DNA from: Elusimicrobiales bacterium
Lineage (GTDB): Bacteria; Elusimicrobiota; Elusimicrobia; Elusimicrobiales; UBA9959
Direction: 5' to 3'
NCBI GenBank assembly: GCA_024681855.1
Contig: JAILAB010000020.1
Coordinates: 16,864 to 80,863 of the forward strand
Length of the DNA: 64,000 nucleotides
Every line of letters starts with the position of its first letter. The stretch's first letter is position 1. Below the pieces are notes generated by a model. The model saw only the letters and a program-made list of their open reading frames with translations. It ran no database searches and had not been told where the DNA came from. Positions 16,485 through 58,189 of the stretch are shown piece by piece. A program made the translations under genes and the position numbers.

Positions 16485-17661
16485 AGCCTTCATTAGTGTT
16501 TTCCTGCATGAGTTTAAGAGAATATTCTCTAATAGGCATTTAAGGCTGGTATGTCTTCTTTCTCCTTTTTTCTATGTCATTGTGCTTACCTCGGTTTATC
16601 ATGAAAAGCGCCTGACTGAAGTGCCTGTAGGAATTGCGGATCTGGATAAAACTCAAATCACAAGAGAGGCCGCAAGATTTTTAGATTCTTCTGAAAATCT
16701 AAGGATAGCGGGGCATTATGATTCTGCGGACGCAGCCCAGCATGATCTTGTAAAAGGCCGCATTTACGGATACTTTTACTTTCCTAAAGGCTTTTCCTCG
16801 GATATAAAAAAAGGCAAGAATGCTTCTTACAGGGTGGCTGCGGATTATATGAACATTGCGCTTGCTAATCCTATTTTCCTTGCATCAGCAGATGTTGCAG
16901 GCGAGCTTTCATCTGAACAATTTTCCATGCTGCCAGGGAAGCCCAGACTGTCAAGGGAAAGGGCCGCTGCCATTCGGAATCTGGTCAGGCCTCAAGTGCA
17001 TACTATTTTTAACCGTGAAATGAATTATGCGGATTTTTTCTTGCCCGGGCTTGTGGTCGTAATAATTCAGCAGGTTATAATAGTAAGCCTATGCTTCTGC
17101 GGTGCAGAAGACAAGCAGGAAAAGCTAACGGATATTTACCGCCTGTCTGGGCTAAATCCGTTCATAGCCGCAGGCGGAAGGATTGCGCCTTATATTCTTC
17201 TTAATTATGCTTTTTCTTGCTTATTCATTCTGATTTGGCTGCGTATTTTTGATTTGAGGCTTGCCCATAGCATGTCAGATTCTCTTCTGTTCATTTTTGT
17301 TTTTGTGTCCGCCTGCTGCTCATTCGGGCTTATGCTTTCTTCTTTTTTCCGTAAGACTGCTGATGTTTTTCTTGTGCTTATGTATTTTGCCATGGGAGCT
17401 TTTCTTGTTTCCGGCTATTCCTGGCCTTCCTATATGCTGCCGCTTATTGCCAGAATCGCGGCGCTGCCTATTCCGTCTACTTATTTCATGTCATGGCTGC
17501 GCATGGCCTTTGGCGCAGAATTGCCGCCAGCCGCGCTTACTTCGGATTTTTGGATACTGGCCGCTATGGCAATTAGTTATTTTATGGTCTCTGGAATAAT
17601 GTTCCGCCGCATATACTGCCATTCTTCGGGAAAAATTACAGCTGAAGAAACTGAAAAATGA
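16477..17661 (+). CDS. ABC-2 type transporter permease, second subunit
   Basis: Same architecture as the first (FLHEFKRIFSNRHL, PVGIADLDKTQITR...GYFYFPKGFSSDI). The ATG at 16477 has a GGGAG RBS and overlaps the upstream stop. Confidence 0.8.
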   Translation: MLKAFISVFLHEFKRIFSNRHLRLVCLLSPFFYVIVLTSVYHEKRLTEVPVGIADLDKTQITREAARFLDSSENLRIAGHYDSADAAQHDLVKGRIYGYFYFPKGFSSDIKKGKNASYRVAADYMNIALANPIFLASADVAGELSSEQFSMLPGKPRLSRERAAAIRNLVRPQVHTIFNREMNYADFFLPGLVVVIIQQVIIVSLCFCGAEDKQEKLTDIYRLSGLNPFIAAGGRIAPYILLNYAFSCLFILIWLRIFDLRLAHSMSDSLLFIFVFVSACCSFGLMLSSFFRKTADVFLVLMYFAMGAFLVSGYSWPSYMLPLIARIAALPIPSTYFMSWLRMAFGAELPPAALTSDFWILAAMAISYFMVSGIMFRRIYCHSSGKITAEETEK

Positions 17662-34726: not shown

Positions 34727-35410
34727 CTAAGCCAAATGGTCTAGTATTTCTGCAAGTCCCCTGCCGATGCAGAAGAAATAAGGATTGTCTGATATAGTAT
34801 ATTCATTGTTTTTAAGCTGCCGCAGATCGTATGTTATGGCTTCCAGATCTATTGCTGCTTCGGCTTCGCGCTGAATTATAAAATCCTGCTGGCCTAAGCC
34901 GTATGACAGAAATACATTCTCATTTACATTTTTGTATTTGTTTAAAACATTCTGTCTTTCCGCGCATACATTATTCCGTTCTTCTTCTTTAAGAAAATGC
35001 CATTTGTCATTTTTCTTAACAGCGTGAAGACTCATATAAGGAAATCGTCCAAATTTTTCATTTGCTTCTTTTTCCGCCTGTTCCTCCGGGCCAGCTGTTT
35101 TGAATGAGAATATTCCTAAATATTCCTTTGCCGGAATAAGCCATTTCCCCATACCTGTTTTCATAAGGCTTGACGATAGTTCCTGAAGCCTGCTGACCCG
35201 GCGGCACATGCGCCAAATCATTATGTCAGATTCGGCATTGAGCCCTGCGGTCATATAAGTCCGCAAAAAAATTCTTTCCTGATGTGAAGCCAGCATATCC
35301 TCAAATTCTCTTTTAGCAGTCATCTGCTCATTGGGACTGAGTCTCTTGAACTCAGGCTGCATGCGTAAAAAGGAAAAAGAGGAAAAAAGAGTCGCTTTGT
35401 TTTCTGGCAT
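34727..35410 (-). CDS. chlorite dismutase family protein (HemQ/ChdC-like)
   Basis: 227 aa. Pattern YMSLHAVKKNDKWHFLKEEER ... SYGLGQQDFII ... resembles the ferredoxin-like repeat of Cld/ChdC proteins. Its start overlaps the upstream stop (TAATG). Confidence 0.55.
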   Translation of the reverse strand: MPENKATLFSSFSFLRMQPEFKRLSPNEQMTAKREFEDMLASHQERIFLRTYMTAGLNAESDIMIWRMCRRVSRLQELSSSLMKTGMGKWLIPAKEYLGIFSFKTAGPEEQAEKEANEKFGRFPYMSLHAVKKNDKWHFLKEEERNNVCAERQNVLNKYKNVNENVFLSYGLGQQDFIIQREAEAAIDLEAITYDLRQLKNNEYTISDNPYFFCIGRGLAEILDHLA

Positions 35411-36825
35411 TATTCCTCACCTTCAAGGAAGTCATTTGACACAGCATCATTAGGAGATGTGTATACCTTTGAATCTGATTCCCCTTCAACTTTCACGTCA
35501 AGCGGCTTGTCATTTGCAGACGGATCTGAAGCTTGAGGCTGTGTTGCCGGAGCTTCAGTTCCTTGCCCGCTTGGCGCTGCTGAGTCTAAGCCGGCCTGGG
35601 CTTTTGCTTCCGGAGTGCGTTCAGGGGCGGATTTCTCCTGCACTACTTGATCGGCAGTGCTTCCGTCAACGCCTACAAATGATATATCGCTTGCTGCCGC
35701 ATTAGGAATTGCCGGGGCTTTTTTGGGAGCAGATTTTTTTCTGGGCTGATTCTTGCGTTTTTTTGCTGCTGTTTTTTTCTTAGCGGCTTTCGTTTTTAAA
35801 GGCCTTTTTTTAGCGGTCTGTTTGCTGCCATCGCCCATAATTACGGTAGGCGTTCCGGAAGGATTTTTTGCCGCTGAGGATTTTTTTACAGGCTGCGGCG
35901 CTTCTTTTTGTATCGCTTTTTCCTCTTCTGTTTCCTGTAGCAGCTGGCCTCCTTCTATGTATTTCCAGTTAAGCACTTTTGTTATAGGACGTATAAGCTC
36001 AATCTCATTCTCTGTTTCAAGCCCTGTTTCAACTTCCATAAGCACATATTTTTTCCCGTTATGCCTAATGAGATTTTTTCTATTAATAATTCTAGTGCCA
36101 AGGCTTTTAGCTACTGTAAGATTGCCGTCAAACTGTTCGCCTATGGCCATTCCTTTTTTTATGTCAAGCACTTCAAGCCATAAGCGGTAAAAATAAGGCT
36201 TGTCTTTTATTGGAATGAAACGGGTAAGTTTTGCGGAAAAGGCATCTCCGGTGCGGAAATGCTCTACTTCTGCCGTCATGCCTTTTAGCAGAGGATTATA
36301 AATTGGCTCAGTGTTTTTTCCTATCAGCAGGACTTTTCTTGAAACAGTAAAAAGCCTGTCTCCCGCATATACTGTTGTATTTGGCGGCACATGTATTTTT
36401 GTTATGATGCCCTTTTCTTCCGGTTTTATGTAGTATGGCTTAAAAACATCCTGCCATCTCCTGCGCGTCTGATTTTTGCTGGTTTCCGGAGTTGCGTCTA
36501 CCATAGCAGCCAGTTCGGTTGTGAGTTCCGTGGCTAATATGGAAGTGGGATCCACTGTGTCAAAAAGCTCTACGTGTATTTCTTCTATGCGGCCGTCAAA
36601 CGGGGCATAAACATCATAGCTGCTTTGCGTAGTGCTTATGGCCGATATTTTAGAAAGCAGTATAAGGTCTCCGGCACGTATGTCTGCCGAAGTATCCTGC
36701 ATTTCCAGCTGCCTGCTCATGTCTTTGTATACCCATGGCCGGTCTGTGTCTTGCGCCTTTAAGCAAGACGGATATGTAAGAATTGCGGAACATAAGAACA
36801 GAAAGAATGCGATAAGTCTTTTCAT
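35410..36825 (-). CDS. secreted membrane-fusion-protein-like (lipoyl/beta-barrel) protein with a long disordered basic-then-acidic tail
   Basis: 471 aa with signal peptide MKRLIAFFLFLCSAILTYPSCLKA. Barrel-sandwich halves IRAGDLILL...VYAPFDGRIEEIHV and GIITKIHVPPNTTVYAGDRLFTV. The tail reads KKRPLKTKAAKKKTAAKKRKNQPRKKSAPKKAP and then turns Q/A/P/S/D/E-rich. Confidence 0.55.
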   Translation of the reverse strand: MKRLIAFFLFLCSAILTYPSCLKAQDTDRPWVYKDMSRQLEMQDTSADIRAGDLILLSKISAISTTQSSYDVYAPFDGRIEEIHVELFDTVDPTSILATELTTELAAMVDATPETSKNQTRRRWQDVFKPYYIKPEEKGIITKIHVPPNTTVYAGDRLFTVSRKVLLIGKNTEPIYNPLLKGMTAEVEHFRTGDAFSAKLTRFIPIKDKPYFYRLWLEVLDIKKGMAIGEQFDGNLTVAKSLGTRIINRKNLIRHNGKKYVLMEVETGLETENEIELIRPITKVLNWKYIEGGQLLQETEEEKAIQKEAPQPVKKSSAAKNPSGTPTVIMGDGSKQTAKKRPLKTKAAKKKTAAKKRKNQPRKKSAPKKAPAIPNAAASDISFVGVDGSTADQVVQEKSAPERTPEAKAQAGLDSAAPSGQGTEAPATQPQASDPSANDKPLDVKVEGESDSKVYTSPNDAVSNDFLEGEE

Positions 36826-39667: not shown

Positions 39668-40939
39668 ATGAAGACAATAACAATAATCCTATCCGCTTTT
39701 TTTATGTTTTCTGCTGCGTTTGCTGTATATGGGGCAGAAAGCAGTACAGCCGTCAATGAAAAACAAAAAGAAAATCAAGAGGGTAAAATTATGGAAATGG
39801 CAATGAGAGCAAATGAAATTGCTTTCAGCTTTTATAAGCAGAAAGCTGCAGGGAAAGAGGAAAATTTCTTTTTCTCTCCGTATAGCATGAGGTCTGCTTT
39901 TGCCATGGCCCGTGAAGGCGCAAAAGGAAAAACGGCAGAAGAAATGGATAAGGTTTTTTTCTTTCCGTCTGAAAATGCGGAAATGCGGCTTGAAATGCAG
40001 TCAATGGCAGAAGCCGCAGCGCAGGCTGCAGAAGGTTCTGAATTTTCCGATGCAAATTCATTTTGGGCGCATAATAATTACACATTTCTGCCTGAATATG
40101 TTTCTGCCCTGAAAAAACATTATAATGCCGCAGCTGAAAATGCTGATTTCGTAATGGATGCTGAAGGCGCAAGGAAAAAGATAAATTCCTGGGCTTCTGA
40201 TAAAACAAACGGCATAATAAAGGAACTTCTTGCCAAAGGCTCTGTAGACCCTCTTACAAGGCTTGTTCTGGTCAATGCTGTTTATTTCAAGGGAACATGG
40301 CAGAAGGCTTTTGATAAAAAAAATACGTCCAAGGAAAATTTTACCCTTAATTCAGGAAAGAAAGTTAAAACAATGTTTATGCAGCACAGGAAAGCTGTCC
40401 GCCTGCAATATGCAGAGACAGAGGAGGGACAGTTTCTGGCCATGCCTTACAGGAAAGGAGAAGATTTGTCAGGCGGCTGGCTGGAAATGATGATAATACT
40501 GCCGAAAGATAAAGAGGCCTTCGCAGATATTGAAAACAATATTTCTTCGGAATACATAAACGAAATGAGAAGGAAAATGACAAGAACTGAAGTAGAGCTT
40601 TATCTGCCCAGGTTCAAATTTGCGGTTTCGCATGAGCTTGATTCCAGCCTTAAATCAATGGGAATGCCGCTTGCCTTTTCAGATAATGCAGATTTTTCAG
40701 GCATGACCGGCAATAATGATTTAAAAATAGGATATGCCATACAGAAAGCATTTATAGATGTTTCCGAAGAAGGCACGGAAGCGGCAGCCGCTACCGCTGT
40801 TGTAATGGCGTTCAGATCAGCAGCTGTGAGGCAGCGGCCGGAAGTTTTCCGCGCGGACAAACCGTTCATATTCCTTATCAGGGATGCAAAAACAGGATTG
40901 ATATTTTTTATGGGCAAATTGGAAAAACCGACGGCATAG
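39668..40939 (+). CDS. serpin (inhibitory type, predicted P1 Arg), with signal peptide
   Basis: 423 aa with MKTITIILSAFFMFSAAFAVYGA. Serpin blocks NFFFSPYSMRSAFAM, INSWASDKTNGIIKELL, LVLVNAVYFKGTWQ. Hinge/RCL is EEGTEAAAATAVVMAFR|SAAV, followed by FRADKPFIFLIRD. Confidence 0.9.
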   Translation: MKTITIILSAFFMFSAAFAVYGAESSTAVNEKQKENQEGKIMEMAMRANEIAFSFYKQKAAGKEENFFFSPYSMRSAFAMAREGAKGKTAEEMDKVFFFPSENAEMRLEMQSMAEAAAQAAEGSEFSDANSFWAHNNYTFLPEYVSALKKHYNAAAENADFVMDAEGARKKINSWASDKTNGIIKELLAKGSVDPLTRLVLVNAVYFKGTWQKAFDKKNTSKENFTLNSGKKVKTMFMQHRKAVRLQYAETEEGQFLAMPYRKGEDLSGGWLEMMIILPKDKEAFADIENNISSEYINEMRRKMTRTEVELYLPRFKFAVSHELDSSLKSMGMPLAFSDNADFSGMTGNNDLKIGYAIQKAFIDVSEEGTEAAAATAVVMAFRSAAVRQRPEVFRADKPFIFLIRDAKTGLIFFMGKLEKPTA

Positions 40940-40978: not shown

Positions 40979-42490
40979 ATGGAAACATTGTCATCAGTGC
41001 AGAAAATAACCGGCCTGGGCGGCTGGGATTATTTGATACTTGCGGCATCCTTGCTTTTCCTGGCCTTTGTTGCCTGGTACAAGGGCAAGGACGAGGAGGA
41101 CACGCACGACTACTTCCTCGGAAAACGCAAGACACCGGTATGGGTAGGCACATTGTCATTCGTAGCCACGGAAATAAGCGCCATGACCATAGTGGGAATA
41201 CCACCTGTAGGATTCACTGAAAATCTGCAGTATATGCAGTTTTTTATAGGTTCTGCCATAGCTAGGGTTATAATTGCTTTTCTGTTTATACCAGCATTTT
41301 ATAAGTTCAGCTGTACTACAATTTATGAATTTCTAAAACACCGTTTCGGAGTTGAGACTCAGTATTGCGGCTCAATTTTCTTTTTCATAACCAGACTGTT
41401 CGCTTCCGGAGTAAGGCTTTATGCCGCAGCGCTGGCAGTTTCGGTAATAATGGGCTGGCCATTAATGGCTACGCTGGCCGGATTTACTGTGGCAGCCATT
41501 CTCTTTATAGGCTTTGGGGGAATAAAGGCTGTGCTTTGGACAGGCACTTTTGAAACTGTTATGTTTTATGCCGCAGGCTTTGGAGTATGCGCATATATAC
41601 TGTGCAATGTTGACGGCGGAATATCCGGGGCTTATTCCGTTGCCCATGAAGCAGGCAAGCTTTCAATGTTTAATTTCGCCTGGGATCCGGCAAATCCCAA
41701 TGTGTTCTGGAGCGCGATTCTGAATGGCATTTTCGGCTCAATGGCTTCTTTTGGCACTGATCAGGAAATGATGCAGCGCCTCCTTACGCTTGAAACGCGT
41801 AAGGAAAGCCAGAAAACGCTAATACTTACCATTGCGGCCAGCGTGCCTCTTACGGCTCTGTATCTGCTTGTAGGAACGCTTCTCTATGTTTTCTATCAGC
41901 AGAATCCCGGGCTGCCGCAGCCTGATAATGCTGATAAGATTTTGTCGCATTTCACTATATATGTTCTCCCTGCGGGGCTGAAAGGACTTGTTCTTTCAGC
42001 CATTGTGCTTGCCAGCATAGATTCTCCGCTAAGCTCCCTTTCCTCTTCGTTTATAACTGATATTTATCGCCCTATAATAAAGAAAAATGCTGATGAAAAG
42101 CATTATTTGCTGGCATCCCGCATAAGCGTTTTGTCTTTTGGCATTCTGCTGGCGGTTATAGCATGGCTTTGTGCATCCGGTTCCGGAAGGATGTTTTGGC
42201 TTGCCTTTAAGATCAATGGCGTTACAGCAGGTTCCCTGCTTGGAGTTTTCCTATTTGGCCTGCTTACAAAAATGCGCGGCAATAAACTGAATGTGGCTTC
42301 AATGCTTATAAGCGCCTTGTCTTCCGCTATAATACTTTGGCTTTCCGAAAAAGGCATAGCTAAGCTGGGCTGGAGCTGGATAATTGTTATAGGAACGGCA
42401 ATAACTTTCTCCCTTTCGTGCCTGTTTTCATGGGGCGCATCAAAAATTAAAACAGCATCAGCGCAGTCTGGCAAAAATTATCAGGGATAA
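40979..42490 (+). CDS. sodium:solute symporter family transporter
   Basis: 503 aa with about 13 TM segments. The N-terminal YFLGKRKTPVWVGTLSFVATEISAMTIVG is typical of SSF (PutP/PanF/SGLT-like) carriers. Confidence 0.8.
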   Translation: METLSSVQKITGLGGWDYLILAASLLFLAFVAWYKGKDEEDTHDYFLGKRKTPVWVGTLSFVATEISAMTIVGIPPVGFTENLQYMQFFIGSAIARVIIAFLFIPAFYKFSCTTIYEFLKHRFGVETQYCGSIFFFITRLFASGVRLYAAALAVSVIMGWPLMATLAGFTVAAILFIGFGGIKAVLWTGTFETVMFYAAGFGVCAYILCNVDGGISGAYSVAHEAGKLSMFNFAWDPANPNVFWSAILNGIFGSMASFGTDQEMMQRLLTLETRKESQKTLILTIAASVPLTALYLLVGTLLYVFYQQNPGLPQPDNADKILSHFTIYVLPAGLKGLVLSAIVLASIDSPLSSLSSSFITDIYRPIIKKNADEKHYLLASRISVLSFGILLAVIAWLCASGSGRMFWLAFKINGVTAGSLLGVFLFGLLTKMRGNKLNVASMLISALSSAIILWLSEKGIAKLGWSWIIVIGTAITFSLSCLFSWGASKIKTASAQSGKNYQG

Positions 42491-43123: not shown

Positions 43124-44431
43124 ATGAAAAAAATCATTTTATTTTTTGTTTCAATGTTCTGTTTTTTTCAGCTTTCCTATGCCGGAAGCTATGAAAGCAT
43201 CGCATCGTCATTAGTGAATTCGGGAGCGGGGCTTAAAGGCGAGAAGCTTGTAATTATTCCTTTCAAGACTGGTTCTGGTCTTCCAGGATATGCGGGGGAA
43301 TCTGCTGCCCATAAGCTTCAGATAAAGCTTACCCAGGAAATTTATTATGATGTGATTACAAAGCCGGAATTTGAAAAAGCTGATGCCTGGCTGAAGGAGA
43401 ATGGGGATTCTAACAAAAATTATGCCTTGCAGCTAATGGAAAGGCTTAATGCCAAGCTTGCTGTCACTGGAGAAATTAACAGAAAGAGCGATTCTGCCGC
43501 CGAATTGAAGGTCAGGCTAATAAACCCTTTTGATAAAAAGACTATTTCAACAATTTCAGATGAAATTCCAAATGAATGGGCTTCCATTGCCTCTTCTGGC
43601 GGAGCGGAGCATGTTCCTGCCCAAGAACAGAATATGGTGCCTGCTCCTGCCGCTGGATATAGTTTTGCTTCAACTGAAAATGCCTCTGCCGGTTCTGCCA
43701 GTCAATCATATTCCTCATCTTCAGCTTATGATTATGGACGGGATTTAAACAAAAAGCGCTCTGACTATGCTTTCTTTGATATATTTTACGGTCTTTCAAA
43801 TTCCCAAAATCTAAGTATGGAATTCAAGCCTCAAAGCGGATATCTTTACGTTAAGGATTTTATAGACAGAGATACTTATGCTTCCAGTTTTGAGCTTAAT
43901 GACCTGGAGACTGATTCAAAAGGCCCAATAGGATTCCGATTTGGAATGTTCCAGGATGTCGTGGGATTTGACTTGGGATTCAGATATGCCAGTTATGAGA
44001 CAAAAGCTCAAAACGGCGAAACAAATCTTGTGAATTATTCTAAAGCCCCGTTGCCAAAAAAATATGCCATGGTTGATGTTTATGAAATGAATGGCGACTT
44101 GCTGTTCCGCTTTGTTAATTCCTCCTTTGCTGATATATACGCAGGCATTGGCCTTGGCATGAATCTTACCCATGTAGAGCTGCCTTATGTGAAAGGATAT
44201 ACAGGATTTTCAGTTAAACAGCCCCCGGTTAAGGAAACAGGCTTTGGAATGTCTTTCCGCATACCGGTAGGCGCGCGATGGAAACTTTCTGATTCAGTGC
44301 ATCTGCTTACCGAAGCATCTTTTGAAGCTTCTATGACCATGGGCGGATTTAGCAGAAATATAGTGGATGAGGATGACACCTATTATCTTTGGGGTTTCCA
44401 GACCATAGCCGGCATAGGCTTTGTGTTCTGA
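43124..44431 (+). CDS. outer-membrane protein, paralog 1: N-terminal periplasmic alpha/beta-like module plus a C-terminal beta-barrel-like domain
   Basis: 435 aa. Signal peptide MKKIILFFVSMFCFFQLSYA|GSYES. The C-terminal half alternates hydrophobic and polar residues and ends AGIGFVF (terminal Phe). Confidence 0.65.
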   Translation: MKKIILFFVSMFCFFQLSYAGSYESIASSLVNSGAGLKGEKLVIIPFKTGSGLPGYAGESAAHKLQIKLTQEIYYDVITKPEFEKADAWLKENGDSNKNYALQLMERLNAKLAVTGEINRKSDSAAELKVRLINPFDKKTISTISDEIPNEWASIASSGGAEHVPAQEQNMVPAPAAGYSFASTENASAGSASQSYSSSSAYDYGRDLNKKRSDYAFFDIFYGLSNSQNLSMEFKPQSGYLYVKDFIDRDTYASSFELNDLETDSKGPIGFRFGMFQDVVGFDLGFRYASYETKAQNGETNLVNYSKAPLPKKYAMVDVYEMNGDLLFRFVNSSFADIYAGIGLGMNLTHVELPYVKGYTGFSVKQPPVKETGFGMSFRIPVGARWKLSDSVHLLTEASFEASMTMGGFSRNIVDEDDTYYLWGFQTIAGIGFVF

Positions 44432-44452
44432 GAAAAAAATCTGATTCAGATA

Positions 44453-44484
44453 AAAGAGGCCGTTTTGTGCGGCCTCTTTTATTG
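44453..44484 (+). terminator. rho-independent terminator
   Basis: aaagaggccg-ttttgtg-cggcctcttt followed by tattg. Confidence 0.75.
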
Positions 44485-44572
44485 GGACAGGCATGGATAA
44501 CAGATGAATATTTTATCTAAAAAATAAAGCGGAGAATTAAAGATTTATACAAATAAATTTATAATGCGTAAA

Positions 44573-44582
44573 TTTTTTTTTT
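44573..44582 (+). repeat. T10 homopolymer tract in the signal-peptide codons of OMP paralog 2
   Basis: Counted directly: ATG CGT AAA (44564-44572), then ten T (44573-44582). It is the longest homopolymer I noticed by eye in the window. Confidence 0.9.
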
Positions 44583-44612
44583 ATTTTCATTTTATTTCTG
44601 CCAACTGCAGCA

Positions 44613-45902
44613 ATGGCAGGCAGCTATGAATCTCTAGCTTCAAAGTTAGCTGCGGCTGGTCAAGAGCTTAAGGGGGCCCGGCTTGCAATAATACCGTTTG
44701 ATGTGCCTGAAGGCCTGCCAGAAGTTTCCGGGGCGGAAGCAGCCCATAAGCTGCATATTGCGCTGTCAAAAAATGCTTATTATGAAATTGTCAGTGAAGA
44801 TGAATTGCGTTCCGAAGAAATATGGCTGAAAGAAAACCGGGATTCTGAAAAAAATTATGCGTTGCAGCTCATGGAGCGGCTTAATGCCAGCCTTGCCATA
44901 ACTGGCAAAATTATTGCATTGAAAAACGGAAATGCTGAAATAAAGGCAAATCTTATAAATACGAGCGAAAGGAAAATTATCGCTTCAATTCTTGAGGAAA
45001 TTCCTTTCAGTGACTGCGACAATAAAGAGAAAAGGGAAGGATTAGCTGGAATTTTGGAAGAAACAGCCGGAGATTCTCTATTCTTGCCTGCGGCATCTGA
45101 ACAGAATAAAAATGGCAGCGAAGCTGCTAAATTATGCGCAGGAACCGCCGATAGTTCTGCGGATACAGGCAGCGTATGTTTGTTTGAGGATGCAGATAAA
45201 GCAAATAAAAATACATTGAACTATTCCTTTTTTGAAATATATTATGGACTGGCAAATCAAAGTTCATTGAATATGTCTTTTTCCAGTGATATGGGGCAAA
45301 TAAACTTAGGGGATTTTAATCTCGGTCTGAGCGGATATGCAAGCAAATTTGAGTTTCGGGGATTAGAAACTTCAGCCGTTGGCCCTATTGGTTTTCGCAC
45401 GGGCTTCTTTGAAGATAAATATGGCTTAGACATTGGCATAAGGTATGCTAAATATCAGACTAAGGCTCAGCATGCCAAGCATGTCGGCTCTAATTTAGAG
45501 AATTATCCTTCCCTGCGGCTTCCTGCAGGATATGCGCAAATTTCCATAGTTGAGTTAAGTTTTGATTTGCTTTACCGTTTTATTAAGTCTTCTTTTATTG
45601 ATGCTTATGCGGGCTTAGGGTTTGGAATGAGCATGACTTATGTTGATCTTCCTCATGTAAAGGGGTATGAGCACATGTATTATAATAAGACTATAGATAA
45701 AAAGGATGAATACGACGGGGTAACTTTCAGGCTTCCCGTTGGCGCAAGGTGGAAAATAAGCAATTCGGTTCATGTTTTTGCGGAATCTTCCGTTGAGGCT
45801 TTAATCATTCGTGAGGATTTTGACTGGGATGCCTCTGGGGGAGAGAATTGCTATAAAATTTATTCGTTCAATACTGTTGCTGGAATTAGCTTCATATTGT
45901 AA
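44613..45902 (+). CDS. outer-membrane protein, paralog 2 (as assembled it lacks a signal peptide; upstream ATG 44564 is out of frame by +1)
   Basis: 429-aa ORF beginning MAGSYESLASKL..., which aligns with the mature N-terminus of paralog 1. Shared blocks include KNYALQLMERLNA, GPIGFR, RYAxYxTKAQ, PVGARWK and AGI(G/S)F(V/I). See the finding on the T10 tract. Confidence 0.65.
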   Translation: MAGSYESLASKLAAAGQELKGARLAIIPFDVPEGLPEVSGAEAAHKLHIALSKNAYYEIVSEDELRSEEIWLKENRDSEKNYALQLMERLNASLAITGKIIALKNGNAEIKANLINTSERKIIASILEEIPFSDCDNKEKREGLAGILEETAGDSLFLPAASEQNKNGSEAAKLCAGTADSSADTGSVCLFEDADKANKNTLNYSFFEIYYGLANQSSLNMSFSSDMGQINLGDFNLGLSGYASKFEFRGLETSAVGPIGFRTGFFEDKYGLDIGIRYAKYQTKAQHAKHVGSNLENYPSLRLPAGYAQISIVELSFDLLYRFIKSSFIDAYAGLGFGMSMTYVDLPHVKGYEHMYYNKTIDKKDEYDGVTFRLPVGARWKISNSVHVFAESSVEALIIREDFDWDASGGENCYKIYSFNTVAGISFIL

Positions 45903-49795: not shown

Positions 49796-51358
49796 ATGAA
49801 TAAACTTCTTGCGCTTGTTTTTTTCTCATTGGTTTCCTTGTTTCCGATGTTTGCTTCGGCAGAAACTGCTGAAAATAGCAATGCTGAAACTAAAAACAAT
49901 AAGACAAAATCTGTCGCAGAAAATAATTTAAAGCCTGTTGCAGATTCTATGCCAGCTGCGTCAAAGGCTGAATCTGATGACGGTTTAAAAGATTTGACAG
50001 CTGTCATTCCTGATGAACAGGAGATTTTGTCTGAAGATGTTTCGGATATTTCATTAGAGCCGGAAATATCTTCTGAAACGGCTCATTCAGATGCAGGGCA
50101 GAAAACTTCTTCAGAAGAAGAAGCCTGGATGACGCTTTTCCCTTTCAGTCCGGCGGCAATGAAAGACCCTTCACCGCAGGATACCCGTTCTTTCAGCGAA
50201 ATTTCACAAGCTGAGTATTGGTTCCTTAAAGAGAATCTTTCTGCTGCGAAAGACGATGATACGCGCAAGGCTCTGTTGCTTGCGGTAGATGAATGGATTA
50301 CGGCTTTTAAGGATTCTGAACATGCGGATGACATTCTGCTGGCCAAAGCGGAGCTTTACATGGGCTTGGGGGATAGCCGCAAAGCTCTCATAACATTAAT
50401 GAAGCACCGGCAGGCATATCCTGACTCTCTTCTTAAGGAAGTTGTGAAAGAAAAACTTTCCTCCATAATAAGCAGGAAATATAAAAAGCATGAGACAGCC
50501 CTTAAGGCTCTTGCCGAAGCGGAAGGCAATGGCCGTACATCCCGACTTGCCAGGCTTTATTCAGGACTGGCAGAACAGTTTGGTGATGAGTTTTTTGACC
50601 CGCTTGTCTCTGAATTTAGAGCTTTGCTTGCCGCAGTGCCTGTATATGCCTATAGGGACAGGCTTCTTTTTTCCCTAGCCCAGCTGTATCATTCGCGGGG
50701 ACATTACGATGAGGCTGCCATAACTTATGCGGAAGTAATAAGAGTTTATCCTGAAGGCACGATAATTCCGGCAGCTAAATTAGCTATAGCTGAAATACAG
50801 GCTAGGGAAAAGCGCAATTATCCCGAAGCCATAAGAATATATGAGGAGATAGCCTTAAAATATGAAGGCCAGGAGGAAGCATTTGCTGCTTATAAAGAGC
50901 TTCCCAGGCTGCTTGAGCGCCAAAAAGAGTATGAAGAGGCAGTAAACATATATGAGAAAATAATAGAGCTTTATCCTGATAAGCCTGAGGCAAGGGATGC
51001 TTACAGGGCTGAAACTTCAATCCTTCGTTATGAGCTGAAACATTATGGCGAAGCAATACATGTGATAAAGCGCATGGCAGAGAAATATAAAGACAACAGG
51101 GCGAAGAATGATCTTTACGGAGCAGCCGATATTGCCAGAAACAATTTGAAAAGCCTTGATGAGGAATTGAAAATTTATGATATAATTGCCAAAGATTATG
51201 CGGATCCTAAGAATGCTCCTGCCGCGCTTCTTGCGGCTGCTCAGGCCTGTGAAAGGGCAAAAGAGCCTGCAAAGGCAGAAAATTATTATAATAAGATTCT
51301 AAATTCCTGGCCGGCTTCCCCGCAGGCTAAGAAAGCGGCAAAAGCCTTGGGAAAGTAG
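49796..51358 (+). CDS. secreted TPR protein (BamD/YbgF-type repeats) with an acidic disordered N-terminal region
   Basis: 520 aa with signal peptide MNKLLALVFFSLVSLFPMFASA. Repeats end in YP(D/E)...(YPDSLL, YPEGTI, YPDKPEA, WPASPQA), as in BamD/YbgF-like TPRs. Confidence 0.7.
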   Translation: MNKLLALVFFSLVSLFPMFASAETAENSNAETKNNKTKSVAENNLKPVADSMPAASKAESDDGLKDLTAVIPDEQEILSEDVSDISLEPEISSETAHSDAGQKTSSEEEAWMTLFPFSPAAMKDPSPQDTRSFSEISQAEYWFLKENLSAAKDDDTRKALLLAVDEWITAFKDSEHADDILLAKAELYMGLGDSRKALITLMKHRQAYPDSLLKEVVKEKLSSIISRKYKKHETALKALAEAEGNGRTSRLARLYSGLAEQFGDEFFDPLVSEFRALLAAVPVYAYRDRLLFSLAQLYHSRGHYDEAAITYAEVIRVYPEGTIIPAAKLAIAEIQAREKRNYPEAIRIYEEIALKYEGQEEAFAAYKELPRLLERQKEYEEAVNIYEKIIELYPDKPEARDAYRAETSILRYELKHYGEAIHVIKRMAEKYKDNRAKNDLYGAADIARNNLKSLDEELKIYDIIAKDYADPKNAPAALLAAAQACERAKEPAKAENYYNKILNSWPASPQAKKAAKALGK

Positions 51359-51390: not shown

Positions 51391-52647
51391 ATGAAGAAAA
51401 AAACTTATTTCTTTCTTGCCCTTGCCTGCGCGGCATTTGTGACAGGATGCAGCTGCAGCTGTAAGACAAAAACGGCTGTTCCAGAGGCTTCCAAGGAGGA
51501 ACTTAATTCAATGACAGAACGTTCAAACAGCATAGCCTTTTCTTTTTATGCCCAGAAAGCGGCAGGAAAAGCGGAAAATTTCTTCTTCTCTCCTTATGGA
51601 ATGAGGGCAGCTTTCGCAATGGCAAGGGACGGGGCAAGAGGCAGCACTGCAGATGAAATGAATAAGGTTTTCTCTTTTCCTGAAAATGAGGAACAGCTCA
51701 GGAATGAAAACCTGGTAATTTCCGCTGCCATGGAAAAAGCGGCGAAAGGAACTGTTTTTTCTGATGCCAATTCTCTTTGGCCGCAAAAAGGCTTTAATTT
51801 TCTGCCAGAATACTTGTCAGGATTAAAAAAATATTATGGCGCTGTTTCTGAAACAGCAGACTATGTGAAAGACATTGATGGCGCTAGAAATAAAATTAAT
51901 TCTTGGGCCGCTAGCAAAACCAATGGAAAGATAAAGGAACTTTTTGCTGAAGGCTCCTTAAACAGCCTTACCAGGCTTGTTCTTGCAAATGCTGTTTATT
52001 TCAAAGGCAGCTGGAGAAAGCCTTTTACAAAAAATTCTTCCTTTGAGGCAGATTTTCATCTTAATTCCGGAGAAAAAGGCAAGGCAATGTTAATGCGGCA
52101 TGAGAGTGAAACATATTTCCCGTATGGGGAAGAAAAAAACATTCAGTTTCTTGCCATGCCGTATAAGGCGGCATCAGAAGAACAGGAAGAGTTCCTTGAA
52201 ATGATGATAATTCTTCCCTATGATAAGAAAGCCTTCATAAATGCCGAGAAAAACCTTAGCTCATCATATATAAAAGAAGCCAGGGAAAAAATGTCAAGCG
52301 AAAAAGTAAGGGTTTTCCTGCCAAAATTTTCTTTTTCTTCATCGCATGATCTTAATGAAGATTTAAAATCACTTGGCATGCGGCTTGCCTTTAATGACAA
52401 GGCAGATTTTTCCGGCATGACAGGAGATAAATCTCTGTATTTGCAGAAAGCAGTGCAAAAAACTTTCATAGATGTTTCGGAAGAGGGAACGGAAGCGGCA
52501 GCTGTTACGGGCATCAGCATGGGACTTAAGTCAATGGCTCCTGTCCCATCAATAATTTTTAGGGCGGATAAACCTTTTATTTTCCTTATACGGGATGTCA
52601 AAACAGGATTAATTCTTTTCATTGGTAAAATAGAAAATCCAAAGTAA
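51391..52647 (+). CDS. serpin (inhibitory type, predicted P1 Lys), lipoprotein signal
   Basis: 418 aa. MKKKTYFFLALACAAFVTGC is a lipobox. NFFFSPYGMRAAFAM, LVLANAVYFKGSWR, hinge/RCL EEGTEAAAVTGISMGLK|SMAP, FRADKPFIFLIRD. AAGGAG RBS. Confidence 0.9.
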   Translation: MKKKTYFFLALACAAFVTGCSCSCKTKTAVPEASKEELNSMTERSNSIAFSFYAQKAAGKAENFFFSPYGMRAAFAMARDGARGSTADEMNKVFSFPENEEQLRNENLVISAAMEKAAKGTVFSDANSLWPQKGFNFLPEYLSGLKKYYGAVSETADYVKDIDGARNKINSWAASKTNGKIKELFAEGSLNSLTRLVLANAVYFKGSWRKPFTKNSSFEADFHLNSGEKGKAMLMRHESETYFPYGEEKNIQFLAMPYKAASEEQEEFLEMMIILPYDKKAFINAEKNLSSSYIKEAREKMSSEKVRVFLPKFSFSSSHDLNEDLKSLGMRLAFNDKADFSGMTGDKSLYLQKAVQKTFIDVSEEGTEAAAVTGISMGLKSMAPVPSIIFRADKPFIFLIRDVKTGLILFIGKIENPK

Positions 52648-52797: not shown

Positions 52798-52825
52798 GTA
52801 AAAAGAAAATACAATGGAGATTGTG

Positions 52826-53851
52826 ATGGATAAAAAAACATCAGTTATTTTTTGCAAAAGAGCCTTAGCTGGCTTTTTGTCTGCCATGCTTGTTGCTGGA
52901 ATGAGCGTAAAAGCATTGGCACAGGTAGATCCTCTTGCTGAGCAGATTACGGATCATTTTATATATTCAGTGGCTATGGGCATTTCAGACCAGAACAGCT
53001 TTATGTCTTTTTCGCTTAATGATATAGGCAATCAGACACTGTTTGCCCCTGCGGCGGCTGGCCTTAACAGCGGTGATGTATGCGGCACTGGCGCATGCGT
53101 AGGAAATCTCCATATAAAAGCTTTTGCTAACAGCGATAATCTGCGCGATTCAGATATGCTGGATGACAATGCTGGCGTGGTGGCGGCATTTAGCACAGAC
53201 CGCATTTATGATGCCTTTGATGCCCGCTATTCTGTGTTTGGCGGATACATGATTTCCCGCATGAAATATGAGGCTTCCATAGGCACAAAAGATCATCATG
53301 AAAACAATATCCCTTTCGCTGGACTGTCCGCTGAGTTTTATAAAGGTCATTTCTTCGGAGGCTTTGTTCTTAATGGCGCTTATGCCCATACAAAAACAAT
53401 GTTTGAAGGAGCAGATGACCGCTCAAGCGATTCCTGGATGGGCGGAGCTGGCGTAAAAGCAGGTTATAATATGAACCTGTTCAGTCATTTTGCCCTGCAG
53501 CCCTTTGGCAAAGCCTCATATACTTATTTCAAAATGGAAAATCAGGAGACTCCTGCCGGAGAAATAGATTTCCATGCCATGCATGGCGTATCTCTTGCCC
53601 CCGGAATGAAAGGCGTTTTGAATCTTGGAAAATGCTGGGAACTTGCCGGCTTCGGCAATTATGTTTGGGATTATATGACTTATAACGATGTAAAGGCAGA
53701 TTCCACAGCTGATGAGATGCTGAATTATGTGGAATACGGCTTGGGCCTTCAGAAGAAATGGTCTTCAGTCATTCTTTCTGCCAATGGCAAGCGCCGTGAA
53801 GGCAAACGCTATGGCTGGTATGCCGACCTTAATTTGGAAGTAAGGTTCTGA
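52826..53851 (+). CDS. outer-membrane beta-barrel protein (autotransporter beta-domain-like, no sizeable passenger)
   Basis: ATG at 52826 with GGAG 6 nt upstream (the track start is 52814). Signal ...LSAMLVAGMSVKALAQ. Alternating beta-strand pattern ending YGWYADLNLEVRF (terminal Phe). Confidence 0.6.
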   Translation: MDKKTSVIFCKRALAGFLSAMLVAGMSVKALAQVDPLAEQITDHFIYSVAMGISDQNSFMSFSLNDIGNQTLFAPAAAGLNSGDVCGTGACVGNLHIKAFANSDNLRDSDMLDDNAGVVAAFSTDRIYDAFDARYSVFGGYMISRMKYEASIGTKDHHENNIPFAGLSAEFYKGHFFGGFVLNGAYAHTKTMFEGADDRSSDSWMGGAGVKAGYNMNLFSHFALQPFGKASYTYFKMENQETPAGEIDFHAMHGVSLAPGMKGVLNLGKCWELAGFGNYVWDYMTYNDVKADSTADEMLNYVEYGLGLQKKWSSVILSANGKRREGKRYGWYADLNLEVRF

Positions 53852-53872: not shown

Positions 53873-54526
53873 ATGACAATGAAAAATTTAATGCTTTTAA
53901 TTATCTCCGCAGGCTTTCTGACTGGCTGCGGCCTTTCATACTGCCGCGAAAATATGTGCGGCAGCTGCCAGACTGCTGAAGAGGCTCCTGCTCCGGTAAA
54001 AAAAGAAGAGCCTAAGAAACCGGTAGAGCAGCCTAAGCCTAAGCCGGTAGAGCAGCCTAAGCCGGTGGCAACGCCGACCGTGGTAATTGACAATGAAGAT
54101 GAGGCAATAACCCTCGGAGCTACTACATTTAAATATAATGCTTACGACTTCACTGATGAAGCTAAAGCAAATCTTGATGTTCTTGCCAATTACATGAAGC
54201 TCCATAAGAAATCTACAATAACTGTTGAAGGCCATACTGACAGCATTGGCTCCGCAGCTGCTAATCAGGATATTTCCGAGAAGCGCGCCAATGCCGTTAA
54301 GAATTACCTTGTTGACAGCGGCATAGACGAAAAGCGCATAACCACTAAGGGGTATGGCAAAACCAAACCTATTGCTACTAACAAAACAAGAGAAGGCCGT
54401 GCAAAGAACCGCCGCATTGAGATTGTTTTTAACAACTCAAAGGCTGCGGCTCAAAAGGCAGCAGCTGCTAAGAAAGCAGCAGCCGCAGTCCAAAAGACAG
54501 CAGCTCAGAAAACAGCTGTAAAATAA
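53873..54526 (+). CDS. OmpA/Pal-family peptidoglycan-binding lipoprotein
   Basis: Lipobox LIISAGFLTGC. OmpA_C motifs TVEGHTDSIGSAAANQDISEKRANAVKNYL and NRRIEI. Pro/Lys repeat linker and an A/K-rich C-terminal tail. An alternative start lies at 53879. Confidence 0.85.
   Translation: MTMKNLMLLIISAGFLTGCGLSYCRENMCGSCQTAEEAPAPVKKEEPKKPVEQPKPKPVEQPKPVATPTVVIDNEDEAITLGATTFKYNAYDFTDEAKANLDVLANYMKLHKKSTITVEGHTDSIGSAAANQDISEKRANAVKNYLVDSGIDEKRITTKGYGKTKPIATNKTREGRAKNRRIEIVFNNSKAAAQKAAAAKKAAAAVQKTAAQKTAVK
54011..54061 (+). repeat. short in-frame tandem repeat encoding (PK)PVEQPKP in the Pal-like linker
   Basis: ccggtagagcagcctaag occurs at 54020-54037 and again at 54044-54061 (24-nt period). cctaag occurs 4 times. 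Confidence 0.8.
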
Positions 54527-57301: not shown

Positions 57302-58189
57302 ATGAAAAAAATATTTTCATTTTTCTTCTTTTTTGTTCTGTTGTCTGACATTTCCGCATATGCCCAGTTTGAGATGCCTGAGAATGATAACATAAATGCT
57401 TTATATAGGGCTGATTCAACATCTCTTAATATGAAAAATCAATCTTATGGAGGCAATATAAAGCTGGGAACTGCCGCAGGCCATAATGTGTACGCGCGCG
57501 GCAAGTGGGCGGAATATCAGTCATCCGGCTATGGTTATTTTCCTAAATATCTTTATGAGGCTAATATTTCCCTGTTTGCGGCATCGGAAATACAGACAAT
57601 TTCACTGTATGCGGATTCTAAATCTGACAAGCTTTATCATTCGGATAAGGAAACTGATTTCGGCTTTAGCTATTTCCGTACCATAAAATCATGGAGCACT
57701 CCGCAAAGCACATGGATGTTCGCCTTGAATTATTCCAGCAGAAGAAGCTTTTGGGGAGGGATTCCAATCCCTTTCTTAGCTTACAGATATATTTCAAGAA
57801 AATTTATCTTTATGGCTCCTTTTTATGCCCAGTGGAATATTAGCGAAACATGGTCTGCCAATGCCCAGTGGCTTCCTGTTGAGTGCTATAAGGCCGGAAT
57901 AAAATGGATGCCTTCAAAATCCTTTTTTATTGAGCTTCAGCATGGAATTAACTCAGAATCTTTTTTCATAGCAAATAGGCCGGAAGAAGATGAGTCGCTG
58001 TATTTAAAAACTGCATATCTGTCCCTAAATCCAGTATGGAAGATAGGGGAGAAAGCTGAACTTTCCTTAATGGCAGGCTGGATATTTCGCAGCAAATATT
58101 ATTATGGAGACAGCTATAGTGATGTGAATGGACTTGTAAGGACTGGCGATGGCTTTGCCGGATCTGCGGCATTAAAGATTTTTTTCTGA
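57302..58189 (+). CDS. putative outer-membrane beta-barrel protein, unknown family
   Basis: 295 aa. Signal MKKIFSFFFFFVLLSDISAYA. Aromatic-rich alternating pattern ending GSAALKIFF. Confidence 0.5.
   Translation: MKKIFSFFFFFVLLSDISAYAQFEMPENDNINALYRADSTSLNMKNQSYGGNIKLGTAAGHNVYARGKWAEYQSSGYGYFPKYLYEANISLFAASEIQTISLYADSKSDKLYHSDKETDFGFSYFRTIKSWSTPQSTWMFALNYSSRRSFWGGIPIPFLAYRYISRKFIFMAPFYAQWNISETWSANAQWLPVECYKAGIKWMPSKSFFIELQHGINSESFFIANRPEEDESLYLKTAYLSLNPVWKIGEKAELSLMAGWIFRSKYYYGDSYSDVNGLVRTGDGFAGSAALKIFF

Follow-up and report, generated by a model that had tools for sequence, protein, structure and literature searches.

The penicillin-binding protein (PBP) activator LpoB uses a disordered tether of about 50-60 residues to contact PBP1B. 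In the same fold class, PelC and CsgG form rings (12-mer and 9-mer, respectively). To our knowledge, the characterized relatives of this fold are all periplasmic modules close to the outer membrane, most of them lipoproteins. The Vibrio lipoprotein FlgO, about 190 amino acids (aa) long, is lipidated at Cys16, forms a C58 ring with FlgP and rings the flagellar motor together with FlgP and FlgT (bioRxiv 10.64898/2025.12.02.691832). Here, we describe two adjacent open reading frames (ORFs), ORF1 and ORF2, on a contig of a gut or rumen Elusimicrobium (JAILAB010000020.1, assembly GCA_024681855.1; the analyzed stretch of 64 kb, positions 16,864 to 80,863, is called the window). Their sequences combine a domain predicted to have this fold with a predicted C-terminal outer-membrane beta-barrel. 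With moderate confidence, we regard them as two tandem, separately transcribed paralogs for barrel-anchored periplasmic adaptors, of which ORF2 is most likely inactive in the window genome.

Two tandem genes with a three-part architecture

ORF1 and ORF2 (Table 1) are full-length diverged tandem paralogs, which BLASTP aligns over 434 columns with 43% identity (61% positives, E 5e-115). A preliminary description, made from the DNA alone, had recognized this pair, and its coordinates for both ORFs match ours exactly. The motifs quoted there occur in both copies, namely GSYES(I/L)AS, ALQLMERLNA, FF(D/E)I.YGL.N, GPIGFR, TKAQ and DLL(F/Y)RF as well as LP(Y/H)VKGY, PVGARWK and AGI(G/S)F(V/I)(F/L). 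The proposed division into N-terminal module, linker and C-terminal region is real as well, as seen in the mean pairwise identities within the family: 65% in the N-domain, which is the most conserved part, 25% in the linker, and 64% and 41% in the strands and loops of the barrel. A third copy was not found in the window using tblastn.

The N-domain of ORF1 was modelled alone with a predicted local distance difference test score (pLDDT) of 92.3 and a predicted template modelling score of 0.84. When this model was compared with the PDB using Foldseek, the top match was the C-terminal domain of LpoB (4q6l; E 3.5e-8, template modelling (TM) score 0.73/0.74, 133 columns), followed in this order by GNA1162, the TolB N-domain, CsgG, PelC, CT253 and HpaA. 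Matches to GNA1162, TolB, CsgG and PelC had a Foldseek probability of 1.00 and E-values from 7e-6 to 6e-4. From the model, a fold of the FlgO/LpoB/TolB-N type is strongly predicted. The likeness to LpoB, FlgO or the TolB N-domain suggested in the preliminary description was thereby recovered for LpoB and TolB, and relatives of the window proteins pass the Pfam threshold for FlgO (see below).

For the full ORF1 protein, an AlphaFold2 (AF2) model was built on an 11-sequence alignment. Its mean pLDDT is 73, with 80-93 in two domains: an alpha/beta domain at residues 21-149 and strands at residues 215-434, separated by disorder at residues 156-211. The linker is strongly predicted to be disordered. 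Its sequence is free to vary, as seen in the low identity given above, and its length is kept: nine full-length relatives all have 53-64 aa in this place. According to DSSP, the C-terminal part of the model consists of eight long strands (14-22 residues). Where the two termini lie, neighboring strands are connected by short turns (2-4 aa), and at the opposite end by loops of 10-22 aa. Foldseek matched the C-terminal 220 aa to the transmembrane domain of OmpA (E 1.2e-7) and further to Ail, OmpX, OmpW and NspA; the barrel matches range from E 1e-7 to 5e-5, with TM scores of 0.5-0.6 when normalized to the target. Thus, the beta-barrel character assumed in the preliminary description is seen in the model, and structure prediction, which had been suggested there as a check, does give a barrel of the transmembrane type. 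In sequence searches, ORF2 reached 24.6 bits (E 3.3e-5) with the Pfam model OMP_b-brl (PF13505), which is below the gathering score of 28.7 bits, and ORF1 gave no match. The proteins end with ...GIGFVF in ORF1, ...GISFVF in its orthologs and ...GISFIL in ORF2; the terminal residue is Leu in the last case and aromatic in most family members. Taken from the model, an eight-stranded outer-membrane barrel similar to OmpA and OmpX is strongly predicted for the C-terminal region.

The orthologs of ORF1 share the MKK... start, and in all of them the signal peptide leads straight into AGSYE, the conserved N-terminus of the mature protein. Because of this ortholog alignment, we favor the upstream MKK start for ORF1. 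In public assemblies, the automatic calls start at the internal Met11 (425 aa, P0001) and truncate the signal peptide. A lipobox was absent from 19 of the 22 full-length relatives checked, and the other three have loose pattern matches at non-conserved positions. No Cys is conserved across the family, and the signal peptides are of the signal peptidase I (SPase I) type (..SYA|G, ..AMA|G).

Table 1. Features of the ORF1-ORF2 locus and of its surroundings (positions in the window).
Feature	Coordinates	Strand	Description	Evidence
ORF1	43124-44431	+	intact 435-aa pre-protein with signal peptide, FlgO/LpoB-like domain, linker and 8-stranded barrel (predicted)	ORF list, orthologs, AF2 model
ORF1 signal peptide	43124-43183	+	Sec signal peptide, aa 1-20, MKKIILFFVSMFCFFQLSYA followed by GSYES; SPase I type, no lipobox	
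ORF1 N-domain	43184-43573	+	alpha/beta domain, aa 21-150; predicted FlgO/LpoB/TolB-N/PelC/CsgG-type fold, predicted periplasmic	
ORF1 linker	43574-43759	+	predicted disordered, low-complexity, aa 151-212	pLDDT 21-29 over residues 156-211 (AF2)
ORF1 barrel	43760-44428	+	predicted C-terminal 8-stranded outer-membrane beta-barrel, aa 213-435, ends ...GIGFVF	
Stem-loop	43001-43036	+	probably terminator, between upstream YtxH-like gene and ORF1	RNA fold -22.4 kcal/mol, z -5.1, 0/200 shuffles as stable
Intergenic hairpin	44449-44483	+	intrinsic-terminator-like, AAAAGAGGCCG...CGGCCTCTTTT, between ORF1 and ORF2	RNA fold -27.4 kcal/mol, z -6.5, 0/200 shuffles as stable
Ancestral ORF2 start	44564-44566	+	ATG of the MRK... 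signal peptide, 49 bases upstream of the ORF2 body, out of frame with it in the window	
T10 homopolymer	44573-44582	+	in the signal-peptide codons of ORF2; 2-nt deletion compared with TTTATTTTTTTT of relatives, frameshift, stop at codon 22	
ORF2 body	44613-45902	+	429 aa from internal ATG (MAGSYES...); three-part layout as in ORF1, no signal peptide as it stands	
ORF2 N-domain	~44616-45005	+		
ORF2 linker	~45006-45221	+		
ORF2 barrel	~45222-45899	+		
ORF without Pfam match	35410-36825	-	471 aa	no match at E <= 1e-5
Serpin gene	39668-40939	+	bacterial serpin, 423 aa	Pfam Serpin, E 5e-110
Symporter gene	40979-42490	+	sodium:solute symporter	
Serpin gene	51391-52647	+	bacterial serpin, 418 aa	Pfam Serpin, E 4e-103
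ORF upstream of Pal-like gene	52814-53851	+	345 aa, no Pfam match	
Pal-like gene	53873-54526	+	OmpA family, 217 aa	
ORF without Pfam match	57302-58189	+	295 aa	no match at E <= 1e-5

Placement in a rare two-domain family

Neither ORF1 nor ORF2 matched the Pfam models FlgO, CsgG, LpoB and TolB_N (PF17680, PF03783, PF13036 and PF04052), which represent this class of domains, even at E <= 1, and searches of NCBIfam and of PDB sequences with both proteins gave nothing usable. Close homologs are rare: ten were found among 5.8 billion proteins, one of which is named as originating from an Elusimicrobiales metagenome-assembled genome (MAG), and 185,579 species-representative genomes contained a single match, in the uncultured Elusimicrobium sp. 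RUG12883. A hidden Markov model (HMM) of the close family retrieved 122 proteins at E <= 1e-3 and 64 at E <= 1e-10 from 1.84 billion cluster representatives, most of them 400-440 aa long and aligned end to end.

Pfam domains were assigned in 84 of these relatives. CsgG was found in 76, FlgO in 68, LpoB in 37, OMP_b-brl in 22 (E <= 0.01) and TolB_N in 11 of them. Individual relatives of full length exceed the gathering score of FlgO with a match to model positions 2-127 of 130; for CsgG, the score is passed over the shared core alone (approx. positions 34-104 of 210). In eight relatives scanned singly, the scores were 25-38 bits for FlgO (cut-off 22.6) and 30-44 bits for CsgG (cut-off 20.8). 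When the close family was aligned with 16 full-length relatives, these eight among them, using hhalign, the probability was 100% with E 3.7e-52 over 397 columns, covering both domains. Through this profile homology to threshold-passing proteins, together with the shared alpha/beta fold, the window proteins are placed in the FlgO/TolB_N-like class. An alignment of all 84 sequences gave marginal profile matches to TolB and FlgO among the PDB sequences (E 0.02-0.1).

In their source databases, the relatives are named "FlgO family outer membrane protein" (Elusimicrobiota, Endomicrobiales), "CsgG/HfaB family protein" (Spirochaetota) or "TolB-like protein". The preliminary description could not place the family; hhalign now ties the proteins over their full length to those which NCBI names "FlgO family outer membrane protein". 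It had also named an assignment by profile searches to a well-described family of outer-membrane proteins as an outcome that would refute its view. This outcome is now reached in part, as far as domains and database names are concerned; for the proteins themselves, no experimental characterization was found, and our literature search for this two-domain architecture found no published characterization either. The window proteins form a diverged clade within this rare family of two-domain proteins. Both folds are well known, and databases already label the family as FlgO-, CsgG- or TolB-like. An annotation as PagL-like lipid A deacylase was rejected, as it came from one sub-threshold match in one relative (20 bits, cut-off 23). 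Some of the proteins retrieved with the N-domain (P0134 and others) carry arrays of tetratricopeptide repeats (TPR), and one carries Laminin_G_3, in place of the barrel, so the FlgO/TolB-like module appears joined to different C-terminal parts in these lineages.

A second copy known from one species

The same locus was compared in five other assemblies (L001 to L005), which stem from at least four samples and share 96.7-99.3% identity with the window. Every assembly of this species, the window included, has both genes in tandem, and the ORF1 protein of the window is 99.8% identical to that of the five others. Between strains, the ratio of nonsynonymous to synonymous rates (dN/dS) of ORF1 is 0.06-0.17, i.e., the gene is under purifying selection. 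At the corresponding position, a related species has a single copy (represented by L006 and L007, the latter being from the uncultured Elusimicrobium sp. RUG12883). In a neighbor-joining tree, ORF1 groups with these single-copy orthologs (49-53% identity), and ORF2 and its 446-aa ortholog P0008 are found on a long branch outside this group. A search with the intact ORF2 ortholog revealed no other ORF2-type protein among the matches listed. Judged from the single copy in the sister species, the long branch and the lack of further ORF2-type matches, ORF1 is the conserved ortholog and ORF2 a lineage-restricted, fast-evolving extra copy which is confined to this species among the matches listed.

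ORF2 is frameshifted in the window

The preliminary description had noted a slippery tract in the second copy, and such a tract exists: the T10 run is the longest homopolymer and the sole homopolymer run of at least 10 nt in the window. Read from the ATG at 44564, the window gives MRKFFFYFHF... and a stop at codon 22. L001 to L005 all carry TTTATTTTTTTT (T3-A-T8) instead, which is in frame, and a 446-aa gene with a signal peptide is called there. The window allele is a private 2-nt deletion, and consequently the ORF2 body is cut off from its signal peptide. Translation of tract variants showed that either T9 or T12 would read MRKFFF(F)IFILFLPTAAMA followed by GSYES... and on to the normal stop, yielding a pre-protein of 445 or 446 aa. 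The comparison between strains proposed in the preliminary description showed the same tandem copy number in all five assemblies and no variation of tract length outside the window. Further tract-length variants were sought in metagenomes using a pattern scan (6-18 nt at the tract), which returned one contig that is already among the five assemblies.

The deletion is the only indel in the 8.6 kb shared with L002. In the same comparison, ORF2 has 8 nonsynonymous and 2 synonymous substitutions, ORF1 has 1 and 5, and seven neighboring genes together have 5 and 22, respectively. ORF2 differs from the neighboring genes with p 0.001 and from ORF1 with p 0.035 (Fisher test). When L001 served as the outgroup, the ORF2 changes confined to the window lineage were 7 nonsynonymous and 2 synonymous ones. 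This substitution pattern fits an ORF2 which is really inactive in the window genome, and on these sequence comparisons it is probably a pseudogene or an OFF allele there.

Flanking signals, base composition and gene neighborhood

Since hairpins are found both 5' of ORF1 and between the two genes, ORF1 and ORF2 look like separate transcription units. A consensus terminator scan missed both structures, which were folded directly instead; the intergenic hairpin is also kept in L001. A consensus promoter scan of the locus gave background-level matches only. The locus had been described as more AT-rich than its flanks, which did not hold: the GC content is 41.7% in ORF1 and 40.9% in ORF2, compared with 43.9 +/- 2.8% for the 52 ORFs of the window, among which they rank 14th and 9th lowest, both within about one standard deviation (SD) of the mean. 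A horizontal-transfer island was rejected, as the GC content lies within 1 SD.

The arrangement of a sodium:solute symporter (SSF) gene, a YtxH-like gene, the family gene and an aminotransferase gene is conserved among close relatives alone. In distant relatives, the family gene is found in unrelated contexts and, therefore, no functional partner can be inferred from synteny. Flagellar, curli or Pel genes were not detected among the 20 neighboring ORFs scanned with Pfam, and the related loci contained neither flagellar genes nor the partners FlgP and FlgT.

Two bacterial serpin genes within 12 kb of each other flank the locus in the window; at the corresponding positions, L001 has both copies, and L003 and L006 have one each. 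The symporter gene, two genes upstream of the pair, is 82% identical to its counterpart in L001 (synonymous divergence approx. 1.0, 15 gaps) and 96% to that in L003, and the genes flanking it are all 98-99.7% identical. By sequence, it looks like a patch of allelic replacement or recombination. Directly upstream of a Pal-like gene of the OmpA family, which is the usual place of TolB, lies a 345-aa ORF; its product may be an envelope protein of diverged sequence and a putative partner of the N-domain. A TPR protein is encoded nearby as well (49796-51358). Two more ORFs of the window have no Pfam match (Table 1), and an ORF of 490 aa without Pfam match is found at the corresponding position in L006.

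Proposed working and alternative readings

In a barrel of eight strands, the two termini lie in the periplasm. Because the strand number is even and the turns next to the termini are short, linker and N-domain are predicted to be periplasmic. The barrel would be inserted by the beta-barrel assembly machinery (BAM) and would serve as a membrane anchor in place of a lipid, from which the linker and the N-domain would hang into the periplasm. The N-domain would probably be the working end, which may bind a partner or self-associate below the outer membrane.

Other readings concern either the fate of ORF2 or the whole protein. The preliminary description had proposed a variable surface-antigen locus. 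In its full form, slippage at the T tract during replication or transcription would switch ORF2 ON and OFF, and the paralogs would provide alternative loops for evasion of immunity or phages. A homopolymer of this length in the 5' coding region, where tract length sets the frame and a slip of -1 or +2 restores the full pre-protein with its signal peptide, is indeed compatible with phase variation, and both the lower conservation of the predicted extracellular loops compared with the strands (41% vs. 64%) and the excess of nonsynonymous change in ORF2 would suit a surface antigen. However, the in-frame T3-A-T8 tract is invariant in the five other assemblies (at least four samples), in which no length polymorphism is seen, and the metagenome scan gave one of the same contigs alone. 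Further, signal peptides rich in Phe and Ile yield T runs as a by-product in a genome of 43% GC, and ORF1 itself has T6 and T7. With ORF1 under purifying selection at the dN/dS given above, with window-specific ORF2 changes scattered over linker and barrel rather than concentrated in the loops, with a hypervariable linker that is predicted to be periplasmic and with ordinary GC content, we consider this explanation quite improbable. A different doubt concerns the state of ORF2 only, as both genes might be intact and T10 an error of assembly or sequencing. In that case, the real tract would be T12, one A-to-T change away from the relatives and collapsed by 2 nt; it would read MRKFFFFIFILF..., with the signal-peptide length of the relatives and a single Ile-to-Phe change. 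That the sole indel in the sequence shared with L002 falls in the longest homopolymer speaks for such an error. On the other hand, homopolymers elsewhere in the shared sequence are free of indels, so errors are not a general trait of this assembly, and the 7 nonsynonymous vs. 2 synonymous private changes are as expected for a gene that is really inactive. Thus, an artefact appears rather unlikely.

Concerning the protein as a whole, a mini-autotransporter of a type Va-like kind, in which the N-domain is exported through the barrel to the surface, would have the domain order of classical autotransporters, and the long strands (14-22 residues) resemble those of the surface-protruding Ail, OmpX and OmpT. 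However, the model has 8 long strands and not 12, its best target-normalized TM scores are to 8-stranded barrels, the linker is disordered and of low complexity rather than a pore-filling helix, and the structural relatives of the N-domain found using Foldseek, as well as LpoB, TolB, PelC, CsgG and FlgO as generally known, are all periplasmic; such an export is hardly credible. The proteins might instead be true orthologs of FlgO in the flagellar H-ring, of CsgG as a curli-type channel or of LpoB as PBP activator. Relatives do pass the Pfam thresholds of FlgO and CsgG, and LpoB, which also has a long disordered tether, is the best structural match. Nevertheless, a lipobox is lacking, the CsgG match is limited to the shared core and excludes the channel-forming part, and the LpoB model TIGR02722 (cut-off 110.55 bits) scores about 19 bits in relatives (18-20 bits) and does not match ORF1 or ORF2. 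Since, in addition, the 20 neighboring ORFs scanned include no flagellar, curli or Pel genes and Vibrio FlgO is a 190-aa lipoprotein ringing the motor with FlgP and FlgT (bioRxiv 10.64898/2025.12.02.691832), orthology to any of the three is very improbable.

Two separately transcribed tandem paralogs for barrel-anchored adaptors, with ORF2 most likely inactive in the window, thus remain our preferred reading. Several points weigh against it. The window proteins stay below every Pfam and NCBIfam threshold, and it is by profile comparison and fold that they are assigned to the family. The number of strands and the predicted periplasmic topology come from the AF2 model, with its alignment of 11 sequences and its mean pLDDT of 73. 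The substitution counts from which relaxed constraint on ORF2 is read are small, the comparison of the window branch with the L001 branch is not significant (p 0.13), and the frameshift could be a homopolymer miscall of a true, in-frame T12. Finally, no experiment and no conserved neighborhood points to a partner or process.

As a speculation of low probability, an adaptor of the LpoB/FlgO/PelC type may have become barrel-anchored in Elusimicrobiota and some Spirochaetota, as a separate way of tethering envelope regulators to the outer membrane; the linker of 53-64 aa would allow the N-domain to pass through the peptidoglycan and control a machine in the inner membrane or associated with the peptidoglycan, e.g., a peptidoglycan synthase as in the case of LpoB, and the duplicate of this species would be a fast-evolving regulator switchable at the T tract. 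If barrel anchoring itself is true, a class of periplasmic adaptor domains of which only lipoproteins are known (LpoB, FlgO, PelC, CsgG) would also exist in a barrel-anchored form. This form would occur in a poorly studied, mostly uncultured phylum, offering a handle on the envelope organization of Elusimicrobiota, and would serve as an experiment of nature on whether it makes a difference to tethered adaptors how they are anchored. The practical gain is modest: two "hypothetical" genes receive an annotation at the domain level, and ORF2 is to be flagged as frameshifted in the window genome. Nothing points to a new mechanism or system, and anchoring by a barrel instead of a lipid would be a variation on known parts.

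Comparison with known systems

The predicted barrel of the window proteins shares short periplasmic turns, long outer loops and an aromatic C-terminal signal with OmpA, OmpX, Ail, OmpW and NspA, at approximately 10-15% sequence identity to OmpA-type barrels. In OmpA, however, the barrel is N-terminal and the C-terminal periplasmic domain binds peptidoglycan, whereas the periplasmic domain predicted here is N-terminal and of another fold. PelC, CsgG, GNA1162 and the TolB N-domain resemble the N-domain in that they are mostly periplasmic and close to the outer membrane, and several of them form rings. In contrast to the window proteins, PelC, CsgG and GNA1162 are lipoproteins and TolB is a soluble protein with a beta-propeller, none of them having a C-terminal integral barrel. 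The transmembrane hairpins of CsgG are absent from the window family, the relatives of which match the shared core alone.

LpoB, the PBP1B activator of E. coli and Salmonella (4q6l, 4q6z, 2mii), combines a globular domain, a disordered tether and an outer-membrane anchor, as the window proteins are predicted to do. Identity is 12-14%, and the order differs: LpoB has an N-terminal lipid and runs anchor-tether-domain, in contrast to domain-tether-C-terminal barrel in the window. No evidence links the family to a PBP. FlgO (PF17680; PDB 9yds) likewise has a periplasmic domain attached to the outer membrane, and its model is matched nearly end to end by the relatives; FlgO is lipidated, whereas the window proteins have no lipobox, have a predicted barrel and lack flagellar neighbors among the ORFs scanned.

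The FlgO-family or TolB-like proteins from MAGs (MFH2069670.1, MHB9155700.1), which are known from database annotation only, differ from the window clade by an identity of 20-30%, by an N-domain that in the window clade is too diverged for the Pfam models FlgO, CsgG and LpoB, and by the tandem second copy, which is found in this species only among the matches listed. In turn, they agree with the window proteins in length (about 400-440 aa), in an SPase I signal peptide that leads directly into a [DG]xY[DE]xLA helix, and in linker and C-terminal barrel, mostly with a terminal aromatic residue.

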